DNA of 64,000 nt from the NCBI GenBank assembly GCA_035539855.1, contig DATLHO010000017.1, positions 13,291 to 77,290 of the forward strand. The letters are read 5' to 3'. The notes beneath the pieces are model-generated. The model was not told where the DNA came from. It did no database searches and worked only from the letters and a program-made list of their open reading frames with translations. A program made the translations under genes and the position numbers. Positions 7,301 through 51,456 of the stretch are shown piece by piece. This DNA is from Candidatus Kapaibacterium sp. Its GTDB lineage: Bacteria > Bacteroidota > Ignavibacteria > OLB7. Every line of letters starts with the position of its first letter. Positions within the stretch are counted from its first letter, which is position 1.

Positions 7301-8292
7301 TCTCCGAGGTGGATTTCGATTCGGTGGAAGTGGGCGACCGCCGCGACTCGCTCGTGACGGTGGCGATCGAGAACACGGGGGAAGTACCGGTCGACGTGAC
7401 GCGCGCCGTGATCGCAGGACCCGACTCGACGCAGTTCGAGATCGTCGACGGCGGCGGACCGTTCACGATCGCGCCGGGAGCATCGCATCCGATGACGCTC
7501 CGCTTCTCGCCGAACGAGCCCGGTCGCACCGCGACGCTGCTGCGCTTCGAGCACGCCGCGATCGGCGCCGATCGCGGCGCGTATCTGTATGGCGAAGGCA
7601 TCGGCCCCGAGCGCTATCCCGACCCGACGACCTTCCGGACGATCGTCACACCGAACGCGATCATCCCGAAGCGAGGACGCGTCGTCGCCGCGAGCTACGA
7701 CGTGTTCGGGCTGATGGCGGGCTACGTGCCGATCGACAACGTGATGGTGATGGCCGGCGGCGCCGTGCCGCTGCCCGACGACTGGGGCGGCGTCAACGGC
7801 ACGATGTACGCGGCATACGGCCTCGGCCTCAAGGCGGGCGTCGAGCTCATGCCGCGGCTGAACGTCGCCGGCGGTCTGATCTGGGGACGCAGCACCTACG
7901 ACAACGACGCGACGGCCGACTCGACCGAGTCGGTGATCACGACGCTCGCGCCGTTCGCCGCGATCAGCTACGGCGACGACGACAGCCGCATCTCCGCGAG
8001 CGCTGGCTACGCGATGAAGACGCACGAGATCATCGTCGCCGGCGAGATCGAGCGCAACGCGATGGTGCTCAGCCTCGGCGGCGACTACCGCATCGCCGAT
8101 CGCTGGAAAGTCTGTGCGGAAGTAATGACGATGGAATCGCTCGGCCACGTGCCGATCGCCGTGACCGCGCGCTGGTTCGGCCGCACCTGGGCCCTCGACG
8201 CGGGCCTCGCATACGTGGGGATCACGACCGGCGACGCCGAAGCGGCGGAGACGCCGGTGCTGCCGATGGTGTCGTGGGTGATGGTGTTTTGA
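4339..8292 (+). CDS. Giant secreted VWA-domain / WD40-repeat / Ig-like multi-domain protein with beta-barrel-like C-terminus
   Basis: Signal peptide (LLLLLILATTMPALAQ). VWA MIDAS motif DVSGSM with downstream TNYDAG and FLTDG. At least 7 WD40/PD40-like repeats (FSPDGRRVAAASWDGTASIWDVATGR and others). Several Ig-like modules (VDFG...V...F.P). The last ~200 aa have alternating beta-strand character and end in ...WVMVF. Confidence 0.8.
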   Translation: MHQTNRMRTVRPLLLLLILATTMPALAQRLTIARLDTSKYPTITALVYPLDRDGRLIEGLDEGDFRVLENGSRREIISMRCSPPPAEQPLSSVLAIDVSGSMAHGGRGGAPNMELARAAAGAWIDGLPEGSESALTIFDHGSMIVQDFTSDRDMLRAGVLALTPNGGTNYDAGLLKPPSGALAIAAKGASRKVVIFLTDGRGRGSEREIVDEAQRIGATIFCVTLGMPAPEVLVNIARRTGGEAYENVSSLEEARAVYRAILFRASGGDPCEITWRSLPACTVERELSIEIPSSGLSATDEYEAPASSVARLDIEPPAVSFGMMTAGSSREMTVTLTAVNRDVTVSSIAPLGATGGFSLVGASAPFTLRSGERRALTVRFDAPDSLYHFARWRIDNDACFGGSLFASAGIGNPPAPSIRVVHPNGGERLHAGEIAEILWDGVRPSDTVRIDYSTDAGTTWRPVASRAGGLAHRWRVPATPSERCLMRIAQVPPGPSTRRDALQYVGPGDWVIASAFSPDGRRVAAASWDGTASIWDVATGRRLQRLVAGSNPASGGRASRVYHVEFSADGSRVLTADEGSAVRVWDVASGRPVRTFDASRVYNKPNSDKAGEGDVTPERVLSPDGRRVALMFNYGRVQYASPAVFDVDSGRLLFEIPQPAGVHYRDVTWSPDGATIAVSGSDSTVTIRRVPTGEVVRTIAVGGEAEGATWSPDGSLIATLSREDRGMADVWNVRTGEKVVEVPFASHGHPRALFHPDGSRLLVWGYTSTPGPRLVDLSGAVVQEYDQDGEGSVGYATFTADGRYVATSNGYTIKVYDTEQGTILNEIEIDAQASHAAFSPDGTRIAGALGDTLGIWPSNRMGLQQDVSDSLWAIVVETKPVAIDVDFGRRAVGVPADSVVEMYIRNDGTRAMTVESIRFGGASAREYSLVSGIPPFAVGPGEARAVEFEFTPARVGPRRASVVIEAGGTTLEKVIRGEGVEPQLRLGLSEVDFDSVEVGDRRDSLVTVAIENTGEVPVDVTRAVIAGPDSTQFEIVDGGGPFTIAPGASHPMTLRFSPNEPGRTATLLRFEHAAIGADRGAYLYGEGIGPERYPDPTTFRTIVTPNAIIPKRGRVVAASYDVFGLMAGYVPIDNVMVMAGGAVPLPDDWGGVNGTMYAAYGLGLKAGVELMPRLNVAGGLIWGRSTYDNDATADSTESVITTLAPFAAISYGDDDSRISASAGYAMKTHEIIVAGEIERNAMVLSLGGDYRIADRWKVCAEVMTMESLGHVPIAVTARWFGRTWALDAGLAYVGITTGDAEAAETPVLPMVSWVMVF

Positions 8293-8330
8293 GGGGAGGG
8301 CTCATCTTCCCACCCCAGTGAGCGCGCCCC

Positions 8331-9016
8331 TGTCATCCCCAGAGGGGATCTTTCTTTGGGTGCGCCTCGCCGCATGTGGCGATAGGGCCACTGCGAATTC
8401 TTCTTTCGCGGCAGCCGCATGCGGCCGCATGCCGCTGCCCTCGCACAACCACACCGACCCACATGCGGTAGTCGCCTCGAAAGAAAGTTCCCCTTCGGGG
8501 ATGACAGAGACGCGCTGTACAGGGTCGAGGCGACGAAGCGCGCATAGCGCGCATCGTCGCCTCGACATCCCGGAAGCTCCCGCCTCTGTCATCCCCAACA
8601 GGGGATCTTTCTTTGGGTGCGCATCACCGTATGTGGCGATAGGGCCAATGCGAATTCTTCTTTCGCGGCAGCCGCATGCGGCTGCCCTCGCACTACCACA
8701 CCGACCCACATGCGGCAGTCGCATCGAAAGAAAGTTCCCCTTCGGGGATGACAGAGAGGCGCTGTTCAAAGTCGAGGCGACGAAGCGCGCCACGCGCGCA
8801 TCGTCGCCTCGACATCCCAGAAGCTCCCGCCCTTGTCATCCCCGGAGGGGATCTTTCTTAGGCTGCGCATCACCGCATGTGGCGAAAGGGCCACAGCGAA
8901 TTCTTCTTTCGCGGCAGCCGCTTGCCGCCGCATGCAGCCGCCCTCGCACTACCACACCGACCCACAAGCGGCAGTCGCACAGTAAGAGAGTTCCCCTTCG
9001 GGGATGACAGAGACGC
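8331..9016. repeat. Three tandem copies (~256, ~247 and ~183 bp) of a highly structured palindromic repeat
   Basis: Copies start at 8331, 8587 and 8834, each with TGTCATCCCC. Each holds a ~175-bp imperfect palindrome running from TGTCATCCCCNNNGGGGATCTTTCTTT to GAAAGAAAGTTCCCCTTCGGGGATGACAGA. The palindrome is centred on GGCAGCCGCATGCGGCTGCC (perfect in copy 2, 8667-8686). Copies 1 and 2 add a ~75-bp linker with a 13-bp-stem hairpin (8524-8566, 8771-8813). Confidence 0.9.
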
Positions 9017-9038
9017 CGCGTGGTTGAGGGGTGAAAAA

Positions 9039-9476
9039 CTACCCGACCCCATCCGTCGCCTGACCATTCCTCGCCTCGTCCTCGAGCACCGCGAATATCT
9101 CCGCGATGTTCGCGCGCAGCTCGTCGAGCTCGCGCTCGCTCCATTGCCGGTAGCCTTCGATGCCGCGATGGATGATCGCGTTCGAGGTCGGACGACTCTC
9201 GCCGCTGATCGCGTCGATGAGTGCTTCGGAGAAGGTCACCGCCTGATCCGCGTTGTAGCCGAACGAATCCTCGAGCGCCCCAACGACGAGCGCGTGCACC
9301 TGCGCGGGCTCGAGTCCCTGCCCCATGCCGGCGGCGAAGACCATCCCGAACGCGAACGTCGAGAGCACCTGCCGCCGCAGCTCCGTCGTCTCCTCGGGCT
9401 CGCCGATGGCGCCGAGAACGTCGGAGATCATCTGTCGGATCTGCAGGCGAAGGGTAGCGAGTGCTGGGTCGGTCAT
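9039..9476 (-). CDS. Hypothetical protein, likely co-transcribed with pncA-pncB
   Basis: Clean ORF directly downstream of pncB on the same strand. I prefer the ATG at 9476. A GTG at 9539 would overlap the pncB stop. No family recognised. Confidence 0.55.
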   Translation of the reverse strand: MTDPALATLRLQIRQMISDVLGAIGEPEETTELRRQVLSTFAFGMVFAAGMGQGLEPAQVHALVVGALEDSFGYNADQAVTFSEALIDAISGESRPTSNAIIHRGIEGYRQWSERELDELRANIAEIFAVLEDEARNGQATDGVG

Positions 9477-9531
9477 GGGTGTCGCGAGAGGCTTCGAAGG
9501 ATGTGTTGCTCGGAAGGTACGATCCGACGGT

Positions 9532-10986
9532 CTACCCACCCAGCTTCCCCGCCAGCTCCTCCGGAACCGTCACCAGCGCACGCCAGTCATTGGGCTCGGC
9601 ACGCATCCGCGCGATGAGCTCCTCGCGCAACGCGTGCAGGCGCGGGCTGATCGTGACCGGATATCGCTCGATGTCCGCGAAGCGCACACGCTGCGCCTCG
9701 ACGAACGCTTTGAGCTTCGTGATGGGAGGGATCGGCTCGTAGAATCCCTTCGTCCAGAAGGGGACCAGCAGCGGCTCGATCGTCGTCGCGCCGTCGATCG
9801 CGATGTCCTCACCGTCGAGGCCGATGACGTCGCCGATGTAGTGACCGGCGTCGTCGGCGCCGCGATAGACCTGCAGGCGGCCGGGCAGCGTCGACTTCTC
9901 GACGGTGCTCGAGAGCTTCATCGTCGGTCGACCGCCGATGAGGCATTCCTTGAAGATCACTCCCGCGACCGACGAGATCTCGCTGATGAGCTTCGTGCCG
10001 ATGCCGAATCCCTCAGCCTCGGGGAAGCGCTCGACCGCGTCGCGAACGCGCTCGGCATCGAGGTCGCCGGTGAGGATCGGCATCAGGCCGAGCAGTCCGT
10101 TGGCCTCGAAGAAACGATGGCACCAGGCTCCGACCGCGGCCAGGTCGCCGCTGTCGACGCGGTATCCCTTGAATGCCGCGCGGCGCGCCGGACTCGATGT
10201 CGCCGCGAGCACCGCGTGGACCGCGCCCTGGTAGACGTCGATCGTGTCGAGGAGGATGACGGTGCCGTTGGGGTTCGCGTCGAGCCAGCGCTCGAACGCG
10301 ACCTGTTCGAAATGCTTCGCGCTGCCCGTGCGCTCGTCGATCTCCGGCTCGTCGATGTAGCGCACGTACGACTGCTGCCAGTAATGCGCCTCGGTTCCGA
10401 CCGCCGGGATGTCGAGCCTGTGCGCGGCCTCGACGTTCGAGGTGTCGTTGAAGCCGCCGATGTACGCCGCGGTTGCCACGTCGATCGAGCGCTCGACGTC
10501 GCCGTTGCGACGCAGCGAGAAGTCGCTCAGCCATCGCTCGCCCGCTGCCATGCGGATGCGCATCGCGTTGGCGGCCACCGTCATCGGCAGGTCGAACGCG
10601 TGCTCGAACTTGATCTCCTGCGCCTGCGTGACGCCGAACGCGCCCGTGATGTCGGCGAAGGGCTCCCCCGCGAACACGATCGTGCCCGGTCGCACGGCGC
10701 GCACGGCCCCGGCGTAGTGCATCTCCTCGATCGCAGCGGCGAAGAGCTCCAGACCACCGCGGTCCTGCTCGAGAAATCGAAGGCGGGGTCGGTCGAGATG
10801 GCTGTCGGTGAGCATCCGCACGAGGCGCTCGTGGCCGAGGCACGGAGCGAACCGGAGCTTGCGCTGCGTGACGTAGAAGGTCGCCTCGACGTCGCTGAGA
10901 CTCTCGCCGTGCAGGTGGGTCTCGGGCTTGTACGACGCGTTGCCCATCACCGCGTGGTAGCGATCGAAGTTCAGCGCCGCCATCAC
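9532..10986 (-). CDS. pncB: Nicotinate phosphoribosyltransferase
   Basis: 484 aa with NAPRTase-like regions (GTEAHYWQQ, GIGTKL). It overlaps the pncA stop by 4 nt. Confidence 0.85.
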   Translation of the reverse strand: MMAALNFDRYHAVMGNASYKPETHLHGESLSDVEATFYVTQRKLRFAPCLGHERLVRMLTDSHLDRPRLRFLEQDRGGLELFAAAIEEMHYAGAVRAVRPGTIVFAGEPFADITGAFGVTQAQEIKFEHAFDLPMTVAANAMRIRMAAGERWLSDFSLRRNGDVERSIDVATAAYIGGFNDTSNVEAAHRLDIPAVGTEAHYWQQSYVRYIDEPEIDERTGSAKHFEQVAFERWLDANPNGTVILLDTIDVYQGAVHAVLAATSSPARRAAFKGYRVDSGDLAAVGAWCHRFFEANGLLGLMPILTGDLDAERVRDAVERFPEAEGFGIGTKLISEISSVAGVIFKECLIGGRPTMKLSSTVEKSTLPGRLQVYRGADDAGHYIGDVIGLDGEDIAIDGATTIEPLLVPFWTKGFYEPIPPITKLKAFVEAQRVRFADIERYPVTISPRLHALREELIARMRAEPNDWRALVTVPEELAGKLGG

Positions 10987-51177: not shown

Positions 51178-51456
51178 TGTCAGATGATAGATGTCAGATG
51201 TTAGATGTCACGAGGCGAAGAGGTTTCGGTGAGCCAGGCCCCCTTCCATGAGCGGCGCCCCGTCATCCTTGACGAGCGGAGCGAGTCGGGGATCTGTCTT
51301 CGGCGGTAGCCGTGCCGAACGGTACCGCTACCGCGGAGGATAGATCTCCGCCGCGCTTCGCTTGCGAAGATGACGGGGGCGCATTCATTCCGGGTAGAGT
51401 GCCTCGTGACATTTGACATCTGACATCTGACATCGAACATCTGACATCTGACATCA
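51178..51456 (-). repeat. Bipartite inverted heptamer-array element filling the uppP-cyclophilin spacer, with a nested palindrome
   Basis: The array at 51407-51455 holds 7 units in perfect register (TGACATT, TGACATC x3, GAACATC, TGACATC x2), and the last unit contains the uppP stop. The inverse array at 51181-51215 holds 4 units plus CACGAGG. Read on the - strand this gives stop-(GATGTCA)n...(ACATCTN)n-CAAACCAAC-ATG. A 122-bp palindrome lies at 51258-51379. Confidence 0.85.

Follow-up and report, generated by a model that had tools for sequence, protein, structure and literature searches.

A tandem palindromic array in a Bacteroidota genome as a probable diverged relative of CGTC-tagged REP and Ssn-related repeats

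Positions 8325 to 9016 of the 64,000-nucleotide stretch analysed here (the window) hold 2.7–3 head-to-tail units, each of which is an imperfect palindrome, and we consider it probable that this array is a diverged, long-spacer, array-forming variant of the Ssn-related/CGTC-REP repeats. CGTC-tagged REPs were described in 2013 without a dedicated transposase, any other partner enzyme or an association with RAYT (PMC3733652), and work published in 2025 showed that a new class of site-specific ssDNA nucleases targets Neisseria dRS3/NTS (PMC11893778). The array would consist of three tandem copies of a composite unit made of a module A and a hairpin B, module A being an HH dimer of short tagged hairpins with a long self-complementary spacer, nested in a palindrome with 22-nt arms. 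The original prediction had suggested a likeness to GTCATCC...GGATC-type palindromic repeats, and this proved a good lead. In their termini, the units match the CGTC/TGTC-tagged REP and Ssn-related motif (SRM) class, so the kind of repeat is known although the family (family 1) is new.

Tandem Repeats Finder reported a single array at 8325–9016 (period 247, 2.7 copies, 87% matches, score 1073). The intergenic gap around it, predicted to be 750 bp, measures ~746 bp, from the stop codon of a VWA/WD40 gene at 8292 to that of a convergent gene at 9039. The second gene had been taken for the tail of a pncB operon; its convergent orientation holds, but the adjoining gene is an Imm48-family immunity gene, and the NAPRTase (pncB) and isochorismatase genes lie only behind it. 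An exact-protein look-up of the Imm48-like gene gave no match, and no orthologue was found in 20 relatives. The three predicted copy starts (8331, 8587 and 8834) agree with the sequence, as TGTCAT begins at each of them, and the predicted inverted termini are present as arms that pair over 47 nt at 81%. The palindrome does not end at TGTCA/TGACA, as had been supposed: it runs ~22–26 nt further out on each side, which makes the unit ~220 nt long. Flank profiles and arm-to-arm comparison gave outer arms beyond the tags of the form CCCC-RRAR-CGCGCCCC, mirrored by GGGNCGCG-YTGTT-GGGG. The features of the array are as follows:

8305–8330, + strand: 5' outer arm of unit 1 (CCCACCCCAGTGAGCGCGCCCC), from flank profiles and arm-to-arm comparison; carries the palindrome past the tag
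8331–8512, + strand: module A of unit 1, a TGTC-tagged hairpin dimer with the tags outward (nhmmer family profile, 165 bits)
8335–8349, + strand: 5' terminal mini-hairpin of unit 1, ATCCCC-AGA-GGGGAT, compared with the NTS, CGTCATTCCCGCGMAVGCGGGAATCYRG
8524–8566, no strand: module B hairpin 1 (GTCGAGGCGACGAAGCGCGC-ATA-GCGCGCATCGTCGCCTCGAC), from inverted-repeat pairing (20-nt arms, 95% complementary) and a genome census of B-type hairpins
8587–8759, + strand: module A of unit 2, with the shortest centre, GGCAGCCGCATGCGGCTGCC (nhmmer, 171 bits)
8771–8813, no strand: module B hairpin 2 (inverted-repeat pairing, 20-nt stem at 95%)
8834–9012, + strand: module A of unit 3, with an expanded centre and no B after it (nhmmer, 157 bits)
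9013–9038, + strand: 3' outer arm of unit 3 (GACGCCGCGTGGTTGAGGGGTG...), reaching the stop codon of the convergent Imm48-like gene

What had been called a linker with a 13-bp perfect stem is indeed a hairpin, but its stems are 20 nt long at 95%, and it is a separate module (B) that is also found beside solitary copies; its predicted absence after copy 3 was borne out. The central expansion ascribed to copy 1 is real, but not peculiar to it, since copy 3 is expanded too. In unit 1, the TGTC tag (8331–8334) precedes the 5' mini-hairpin and CTTTCTTT follows it, and the interior is a long structured spacer with a central variable hairpin in its expanded form. Unit 2 with its flanks folds as a single long hairpin (−124.6 kcal/mol). 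The repeats also create spurious ORFs, for example a 229-aa ORF that spans the array. A coding repeat was rejected because neither period (247 or 256 nt) is divisible by three and this ORF has no Pfam match. A 13-codon mini-ORF (ATG...TGA) conserved in the 3' arm was likewise rejected, because about one copy in four has a 1-nt difference in loop length that throws it out of frame.

Each terminus of module A is built from a [T/C]GTC tag, a mini-hairpin of the form AT(C/T)CCC-loop-GGG(G/A)AT and a C-T-rich tail (sequence form TGTCATCCCC), with the tags pointing outward; they lie on the outside in all full copies. TGTC is the common tag (~88 termini) and CGTC the rare one (~9), and the residues G, T and C are invariant in 25 aligned copies. 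The stem base is A-T followed by T-A (AT...AT), the stems are of 5–6 bp (at least 5 bp at 33 of 43 5' ends and 38 of 43 3' ends), the loops are mostly of 2–4 nt and the tail is CTT. Between the termini lies a conserved, self-complementary spacer of ~135 nt.

The terminal hairpins stay paired through compensatory changes. Pair 56–68 of the terminal hairpin is UA in 33 cases, CG in 10 and broken in 1, and pair 57–67 is CG in 29, UA in 13 and broken in 2; doubly changed cells in the local hairpins number 23 compared to 8.2 in shuffles, and none of 500 shuffles reached 23. These changes may represent few events, because they are common to several loci; alternatively, their cause may be templated correction of the short palindromes and not selection. 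At the same sites the long-range pairing is broken. In the long hairpin, 81.5% of cells are paired, against 41–51% in slid controls; as this equals the shuffle mean (81.7%), the long palindrome shows no covariation. The long-range palindrome is thus only inherited and not kept by compensatory change.

Of the three readings that the original prediction had offered, the REP/BIME-like one stands, in that the family is dispersed, almost always intergenic, modular (A + B) and forms arrays, whereas the MITE-like one finds no support and the evidence speaks against a strand-specific RNA. Over 42 copies the mean fold energy is −104 kcal/mol for the sense and −108 kcal/mol for the antisense strand, with the sense strand more stable in 16 of 42, and the UNCG-like loops are symmetrical, at both ends of the unit. 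A strand-specific RNA structure was rejected because the two strands fold equally well. The Rfam search of the array gave no family match, only sub-threshold ones (plant and animal miRNA models and asX4, at 15–35 bits versus thresholds of 74–268).

Family 1 comprises 62 copies at 38 loci on 33 contigs of the genome, so the array is not a locus-specific duplication. Forty-six copies are full length, in size classes of about 149 nt and 173–199 nt, and nine arrays of 2–5 units are present; half copies are solo or at contig ends. Nine of the 62 copies lie within 300 nt of a contig end, as repeats break the assembly. With a crude ORF/GC3 caller for the surrounding genes, 36 of the 38 loci fall outside long ORF calls, and 24 of 38 3'-facing ORFs end no more than 40 nt from an element; on informal reading, the gene neighbours are diverse. 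Outside module A there are ~10 weak candidates for singleton tagged hairpins and no firm singleton units apart from the dimers. A generic tagged-hairpin count gave 4,828 in the genome and 2,274 in the reversed-genome control, and is mostly chance.

The family is confined to this lineage. BLAST did not find it in 40 relatives, nor did a covariance model of the 3' module in 300 genomes of the class, and an exact-pattern scan of a 185,579-species contig collection returned four single chance matches, none of them confirmed by the family profile. In a metagenome pattern scan, at least two of the matches listed were genuine contigs (L133 and L059), the others being mostly chance. These two contigs are 99.6–99.8% identical to the genome, have identical copy numbers and belong to the same population, and therefore no insertion polymorphism or empty site was seen in comparing them with it; soil samples of the Ga0247822/Ga0247823 series carry this population. 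Copies within one array are 87% identical on average, and copies at different loci 73%, with a maximum of 85%. To judge from the latter values, family 1 is old, with no trace of recent spread.

The genome has a single small GIY-YIG gene (contig C37, 255–593, minus strand), which encodes a single-domain protein of 113 aa. The protein matched PF01541 only (8e-11) and nothing in NCBIfam, and the motifs GIY, YVG, R-x-x-x-H and REK are conserved. Set beside the definition of the Ssn family (cd10448: at most 150 aa, a GIY-YIG domain only, homology to N. meningitidis SsnA, CAX49033.1), it is a putative Ssn-type nuclease and a candidate member of cd10448. No copy of family 1 is present on this contig. 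Instead, copies of a second palindromic family (family 2) stand on both sides of the gene, one at C37:109–254, abutting the stop codon, and another upstream at C37:619–754. Family 2, of which 39 contigs carry 51 copies, follows the plan of module A and shares with it the form [C/T]GTC-ATCC...GGAT-C-TTTCTT(C/T)GG and a mirror-image 3' end. It is younger than family 1 (mean pairwise identity 83%; 86–95% to its consensus), and one copy lies in the window, within the uppP-cyclophilin spacer:

51259–51376, + strand: family-2 copy, a CGTC-tagged palindrome (nhmmer family-2 profile, 120 bits; BLAST C17:64548–64668)

Homologues of the GIY-YIG protein are 'GIY-YIG nuclease family proteins' of 95–115 aa. 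Of 40 relatives, 11 carry homologues, and in five of these genomes (L185, L186, L187, L197 and L199) tagged hairpins stand on both sides of the gene. The flanking hairpin in L186, TGTCATTCCCGCGAAAGCGGGAATCCA, passes the SRM pattern. Three relatives have 118, 37 and 8 canonical NTS-type hairpins, and the gene is present in all three (reversed-pattern control, 0; Fisher P = 0.017 for the link to the gene).

How might such units have come about? Whenever the DNA is single-stranded, be it on entry by transformation, in intermediates of replication or repair, or in an extruded cruciform, either strand would offer one tag-plus-hairpin per unit in cleavable orientation. The Ssn-type enzymes of Neisseria, N. 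elongata, N. wadsworthii and Wolbachia cut a few bases upstream of the tag in vitro; by analogy, an Ssn-type nuclease would bind the stem base and tag here and cut in the same position. We infer that the C37 nuclease may cleave family-1 termini and that the units may be mobile. The units may have spread in the past via a process tied to the GIY-YIG enzyme or to recombination, and arrays would then have lengthened as A+B units were duplicated in tandem on the spot, for which the higher identity within arrays than between loci speaks. In a bolder form of the idea, which we regard as doubtful, the tagged-hairpin dimers of families 1 and 2 would be mobile but non-autonomous, and the single-copy GIY-YIG ssDNA nuclease, whose gene lies among them, would excise and insert them. 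As the tags point outward, its cuts on the two strands would fall just beyond the element and so free the whole palindrome, for example from a cruciform or replication fork.

Several other explanations have to be weighed against a diverged Ssn-related/CGTC-REP variant. The geometry is also that of REPINs (PMC3116915, PMC3337134), with inverted hairpins carrying an outer conserved tetranucleotide, a long foldback, intergenic positions and arrays. A strict REPIN or BIME would be non-autonomous and would move by means of a REP-associated tyrosine (Y1/HUH) transposase that reads the tetranucleotide and hairpin on ssDNA. The proposed search for a RAYT partner failed, as six-frame translations of the 99%-complete genome, assembled in 333 contigs, contained no PF01797 match at E ≤ 0.01 while control genomes were matched. 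Furthermore, the tag is TGTC/CGTC and not GTAG, CGTC REPs are reported to have no link to RAYT, and another candidate partner, the GIY-YIG nuclease gene, sits inside repeats; we therefore hold this origin to be very improbable. We find a classical MITE, that is, a cut-and-paste deletion derivative of a DDE-transposase IS with TG...CA terminal inverted repeats and target-site duplications, scarcely credible. The terminal inverted repeats do start TGT...ACA, the size classes resemble deletion derivatives and an IS21-like istA gene is present on a 3-kb contig, but just outside the TGTC/GACA ends the flanks are an inverted complement (CCC...GGG, then CGCG...CGCG) and not a direct duplication. No Y1/RAYT, TnpB or DDE_Tnp_1 gene was found in the genome and no transposase matches the elements; the rve matches are limited to two weak loci, with no TGTC[ACT]T termini within 4 kb of either, and no long element bounded by two family-1 halves was found.

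REPs in general have been proposed as terminators or stabilisers, and a host-serving element, either a two-way intrinsic terminator or an mRNA-stabilising hairpin kept by selection for that function, would account for CTTTCTTT inward of each terminal hairpin and for copies directly behind stop codons. A scan of the array found 6 terminator-like sites compared to 0.8 in shuffles, and at least 5 T occur within 8 nt past the terminal hairpin at 35 of 43 5' ends and 26 of 38 3' ends. Among 28 classifiable loci, only 5 are divergent, compared to 8 convergent and 15 co-directional, which favours such a role. Against it, there are these five loci between divergent genes, and at the co-directional loci the element has the same orientation in only 10 cases versus 5 opposite. 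The stem is short (5–6 bp), the T-tract is interrupted, arrays of 3–5 units would be redundant for termination, Rfam gave no match and the link to the GIY-YIG gene is left unexplained. As the whole explanation we consider this unlikely. As a secondary role it is compatible with the diverged-variant explanation, where the hairpin and CTTTCTTT tail at each end could serve as an inward-facing terminator for both flanking genes. Unlikely too, in our estimate, is an inert relic: family 1 would be extinct, would now lack both function and partner, and would owe its perfect short hairpins to templated (quasi-palindrome) correction in replication. Its divergence between loci, the lack of near-identical dispersed copies, the decay of the long palindrome without compensation and the equal folding of both strands agree with such a relic. 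So do the module B hairpins, whose stems in the genome census are almost perfect while many positions differ between loci, with non-wobble mismatches, as would fit a DNA-level copying process. On the other hand, the younger sister family 2 still brackets an intact GIY-YIG gene, and the tag, stem base and 3' arm of module A are far more conserved than the rest (20 of 76 columns invariant).

If the array is a diverged Ssn-related/CGTC-REP variant, the sequence data point to the same repeat-nuclease partnership in an uncultured Bacteroidota lineage. The canonical motifs of sister genera and the two palindromic derivatives of this genome, both strongly diverged, would form a natural series, which could show whether the Ssn enzyme reads the tag and stem base or the inner stem, whether dimers move, and how 250-bp tandem arrays come to fill intergenic regions. 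If mobility through the GIY-YIG enzyme were true, this would be the GIY-YIG counterpart of REPIN-RAYT, and Ssn the long-missing 'transposase' of the CGTC-tagged REPs.

Finally, we compared the array with known systems. The CGTC REP class, which takes in Neisseria dRS3 and Rickettsia RPE-4/RPE-6 (Di Nocera, De Gregorio & Rocco 2013, PMC3733652), has the tag CGTC, often TGTC (CCTC allowed), A-T at stem positions 1 and 2, a stem of 8–9 bp, a loop of 4–5 nt and a 3-nt tail that is mostly CCA. HH dimers predominate, with conserved or structured spacers of 20–100 nt, and some are nested in a longer palindrome; the repeats lie near ORF 3' ends, occur in Bacteroidetes/Chlorobi, form families of tens to hundreds and are rarely clustered (PMC3733652). 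Module A shares with them the terminal CGTC/TGTC tag, the A-T/T-A stem base, inverted units with tags outside, a conserved self-complementary spacer, folding of the dimer into one long stem-loop and nesting in a palindrome, and family 1 the position close behind ORF 3' ends, the family size and the lack of a RAYT. In contrast, module A has a shorter stem (5–6 bp) and loop (2–4 nt), a CTT tail, a longer spacer (~135 nt) and units only within dimers, with no firm singletons, and family 1 forms regular A + B tandem arrays of up to 5 units.

SsnA, a GIY-YIG protein of 94 aa with a single domain, cuts the NTS, CGTCATTCCCGCGMAVGCGGGAATCYRG, in ssDNA, and copies of its motif usually flank its gene; loop identity is unneeded and stem extensions are tolerated (Nat Commun 2025, PMC11893778). 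The SRM pattern HGTCWYN(0-2)YYVSBRHN(0-5)WNVSBRGN(0-2)RNCYNB (PMC11893778) found no match inside module A copies or in the consensus termini of families 1 and 2, while the NTS control matched. Here the motif occurs only as both ends of 115–220-nt palindromes, and the repeats beside the GIY-YIG gene are the sister family 2, not family 1. Module A shares with NTS/SRM an oriented hairpin with HGTC as the tag upstream of it, AT for WY where the stem begins and R-N-C-Y (A-T-C-T) past the stem. Moreover, as with NTS and SsnA, a small single-domain GIY-YIG gene is bracketed by repeats, here those of family 2, and the homologues in relatives by tagged hairpins that include near-canonical NTS. The REPIN-RAYT system differs in its GTAG tag and in its Y1 (HUH) transposase partner, which is absent from this genome. 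The likeness to REPIN-RAYT and the E. coli BIMEs (PMC3116915, PMC3337134) lies in the foldback inverted hairpin pairs, the mosaic arrays of different hairpin modules, the vertical persistence within a single lineage and the one-copy gene for a partner that sits among the repeats.

The triplet in the window forms one array at 8325-9016 (Tandem Repeats Finder: period 247, 2.7 copies, 87% matches), and TGTCAT is present at all three unit starts of the original prediction (8331, 8587 and 8834). Inverted termini, 47 nt long and 81% complementary, bound each unit, and behind units 1 and 2 comes a 43-nt hairpin whose 20-nt arms are 95% complementary. The original prediction described this arrangement correctly except in three respects. 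The real palindrome reaches ∼22-26 nt farther outward on each side than claimed; the central expansion reported for unit 1 exists but is not confined there, as unit 3 has one too; and the 'linker' does contain a hairpin but is an independent module (module B) rather than a mere linker beside the TGTC-tagged hairpin-dimer unit (module A, or family 1).

Features at the array (window positions)
stop at 8292: VWA/WD40 protein gene, 1317 aa, bordering the array
8524-8566: module B hairpin
8771-8813: module B hairpin
9039-9539, minus strand: Imm48-family immunity protein homologue, 166 aa (PF15574, 1.2e-27), converging on the array with its stop at 9039
behind the Imm48 gene: nicotinate phosphoribosyltransferase gene and isochorismatase gene

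We rejected a coding repeat, as the unit length is not divisible by three and the 229-aa ORF that spans the array has no Pfam match. Rfam gave nothing above threshold for the array. The Imm48-like gene, for which no orthologue was found in 20 relatives, is an accessory gene directly adjoining the repeats.

When one unit was used as a BLAST query against the genome that contains the window (333 contigs totalling 4.87 Mb, 99% complete), 92 segments on >30 contigs matched, and an iterated nhmmer census counted 62 copies, spread over 38 loci and 33 contigs. The original prediction had named a purely local duplication as the alternative to a repeat family; with 62 dispersed copies, the family is not locus-specific. 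Of the 62 copies, 46 are full length; copy sizes fall into clusters of ∼149 nt, without the central hairpin, and 173-199 nt, and there are nine tandem arrays, each of 2-5 units. Because nine of the 62 copies lie <300 nt from a contig end, the true copy number is probably higher. Copies of one array share a mean identity of 87% (76-95%) versus 73% (60-85%) for copies from different loci, which suggests that the arrays grew through local duplication and that the dispersal is old. Family 1 was not found by BLAST in 40 relatives or, as an exact pattern, in a 185,579-species contig collection, and a covariance model of its best-conserved 76 nt gave a single borderline match (E = 8.8e-4) among 300 genomes of the same class. 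Two metagenome contigs do carry copies, but they come from the same population as the window's genome (99.6-99.8% identity) and match it in copy numbers. Family 1 is a real, lineage-specific repeat family.

The module A consensus reads CGCCCC, then TGTC-ATCCCC-GNA-GGGGAT-CTTTCTTTGG..., a central variable hairpin, ...CCGAAAGAAAG-ATCCCC-TNC-GGGGAT-GACA and finally GGGGCG. Folded alone, each unit forms one long, imperfect hairpin (-93 to -125 kcal/mol), equally stable for the sense and antisense strands. In the alignment of 25 long copies, 81.5% of cells paired over long range versus 41-51% in slid controls. Because this value equals the shuffle expectation (81.7%) and compensatory changes are not in excess, the long palindrome is inherited, not maintained. 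The two terminal mini-hairpins, by contrast, do show such an excess. Among 44 distinct 3' ends, pair 56-68 was intact in all but 1 (33 UA, 10 CG) and pair 57-67 in all but 2 (29 CG, 13 UA). Both sides had changed in 23 cells versus 8.2 after shuffling, and 0/500 shuffles reached the observed figure. The variants (ATCCCC/GGGGAT, TTCCC/GGGAA, CCCCC/GGGGG and ATGCCC/GGGCAT) occur independently at either end and break the end-to-end pairing; as they are common to several loci, the independent compensatory events are few. Module B, with the form CGAG-N-CG-N-GCGCGC-NNN-GCGCGC...CTCG, also occurs on contigs C108, C140, C150, C167, C246, C276, C280, C29 and C308 and at C154:37417. Its stems are near-perfect (17-21 bp), yet 6-7 positions differ from locus to locus and the mismatches are of the non-G-T type, a pattern that would suit templated correction of the palindrome at the DNA level, or selection on both strands.

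A crude ORF/GC3 gene caller made 28 loci classifiable: the neighbours were co-directional in 15, convergent in 8 and divergent in 5. Stops lay ≤40 nt away for 24 of 38 ORFs with the 3' end facing an element, and there was no clear orientation bias relative to co-directional neighbours (10 same, 5 opposite). In a consensus scan, each terminal hairpin with its CTTTCTTT tail resembled a terminator, facing inward from both ends, and the array held 6 such sites versus 0.8 in shuffles; a terminator role of the module A ends may be a side effect.

The original prediction had proposed a RAYT as partner. Whole-genome searches for Y1/RAYT (PF01797), TnpB (PF07282) and DDE_Tnp_1 (PF01609) found none of these domains, and control genomes were positive for each. 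Of two weak rve matches, one is a fragment and the other an IS21-like istA gene, and the termini at both loci are unlike those of family 1. These are the sole two rve matches in an assembly that is otherwise almost free of transposases.

Genes considered in the partner search and copies of family 2, the CGTC-tagged sister family (contig:positions; bare positions, window)
C208:1293-2876, minus: IS21-like IstA transposase ORF, 528 aa, on a 3-kb contig
C37:255-593, minus: small GIY-YIG gene, 113 aa, candidate Ssn-type ssDNA nuclease (PF01541 only, 8e-11)
C37:109-254: family-2 copy abutting the stop codon of that gene
C37:619-754: family-2 copy upstream of it
C153:39881-40081, minus: other small GIY-YIG ORF, ∼88 aa, downstream of a tRNA gene
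51259-51376: full CGTC-tagged family-2 copy, ∼118 nt, inside the heptamer-repeat spacer from uppP to the cyclophilin gene

In Neisseria, the 94-aa single-domain GIY-YIG protein SsnA binds and cuts its target NTS, CGTCATTCCCGCGMAVGCGGGAATCYRG, solely as single-stranded DNA; direction is set by the upstream tag, whereas the identity of the loop is not required and the loop position can be extended (PMC11893778, 2025). Across phyla, ssn genes typically have their own 'Ssn-related motifs' (SRM) on both sides (PMC11893778). Of the four GIY-YIG matches in the window's genome, two are UvrC-sized and two small. The C153 ORF, whose flanks lack tagged hairpins, is of another GIY-YIG subfamily and weakly matches group I intron endonucleases. 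The C37 gene, which appears to be the sole one of its kind in the assembly, is bracketed by repeats starting CCACGTCATCC... that belong to family 2, not family 1. Family 2 comprises 51 dispersed palindromes of 115-126 nt on 39 contigs (mean pairwise identity 83%), none in tandem, and is absent from the 40 relatives. Its consensus, CGTC-ATCC-[inner hairpin]-GGAT-C-TnTCTTCGGCGG-[central hairpin]-CCGCGGAAGAnaG-ATCC-[inner hairpin]-GGAT-GACG, follows the module A ground plan and has its tag, stem base and T-rich arm. The termini of neither family match the published SRM pattern. The genome carries one candidate Ssn-like nuclease gene, embedded in the sister family. The encoded protein would most likely recognise the tag and hairpin base in single-stranded DNA, with the family-1 arrays produced by local duplication.

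The C37 protein has many single-domain GIY-YIG homologues of 95-115 aa, and 11 of 40 relatives have at least one. At five fetched loci, [T/C]GTC-tagged hairpins stand on both sides of the homologue gene. The flanking hairpin of G015, which belongs to the same taxonomic family as the window's genome, is TGTCATTCCCGCGAAAGCGGGAATCCA; it matches the published SRM pattern and is practically identical to the Neisseria NTS. Near-canonical NTS-type hairpins TGTCATTCCCGCGAAAGCGGGAATC number 118, 37 and 8 in G015, G023 and G020 (loci L186, L199 and others), three relatives of the same class that each have one to three small GIY-YIG homologues. Other relatives have 0-4 copies of the canonical pattern, and a reversed-pattern control gave 0; canonical hairpins and the GIY-YIG gene are associated (Fisher P = 0.017). 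The joint presence of NTS hairpins and small GIY-YIG homologues argues that an Ssn/SRM system is well established in this Bacteroidota lineage.

CGTC-tagged REPs, known from Proteobacteria, Chlorobi, Bacteroidetes and others (PMC3733652; Di Nocera et al.), have a terminal CGTC, frequently TGTC, A-T pairs at stem positions 1-2, a stem of 8-9 bp, a loop of 4-5 nt and a 3-nt tail (PMC3733652). They occur mainly as 'HH dimers', in which the tags lie outside and the spacers (20-100 bp) are conserved or structured. Certain dimers sit within longer palindromes, and the repeats lie close behind ORFs without an associated transposase (PMC3733652). Their Neisseria member is dRS3, of which the NTS is a longer form (PMC11893778). 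The module A termini resemble the NTS in their tag, in the AT at the base of the stem, in a stem of C-run and G-run and in the A-T-C-Y behind it. Compared with published CGTC REPs, module A has shorter stems and loops and a longer spacer. Family 1 is best placed in the CGTC/TGTC-tagged REP or Ssn-related motif class, as a diverged variant that has a long spacer and forms arrays: the kind of repeat is already known, whereas the variant and the host lineage are new.
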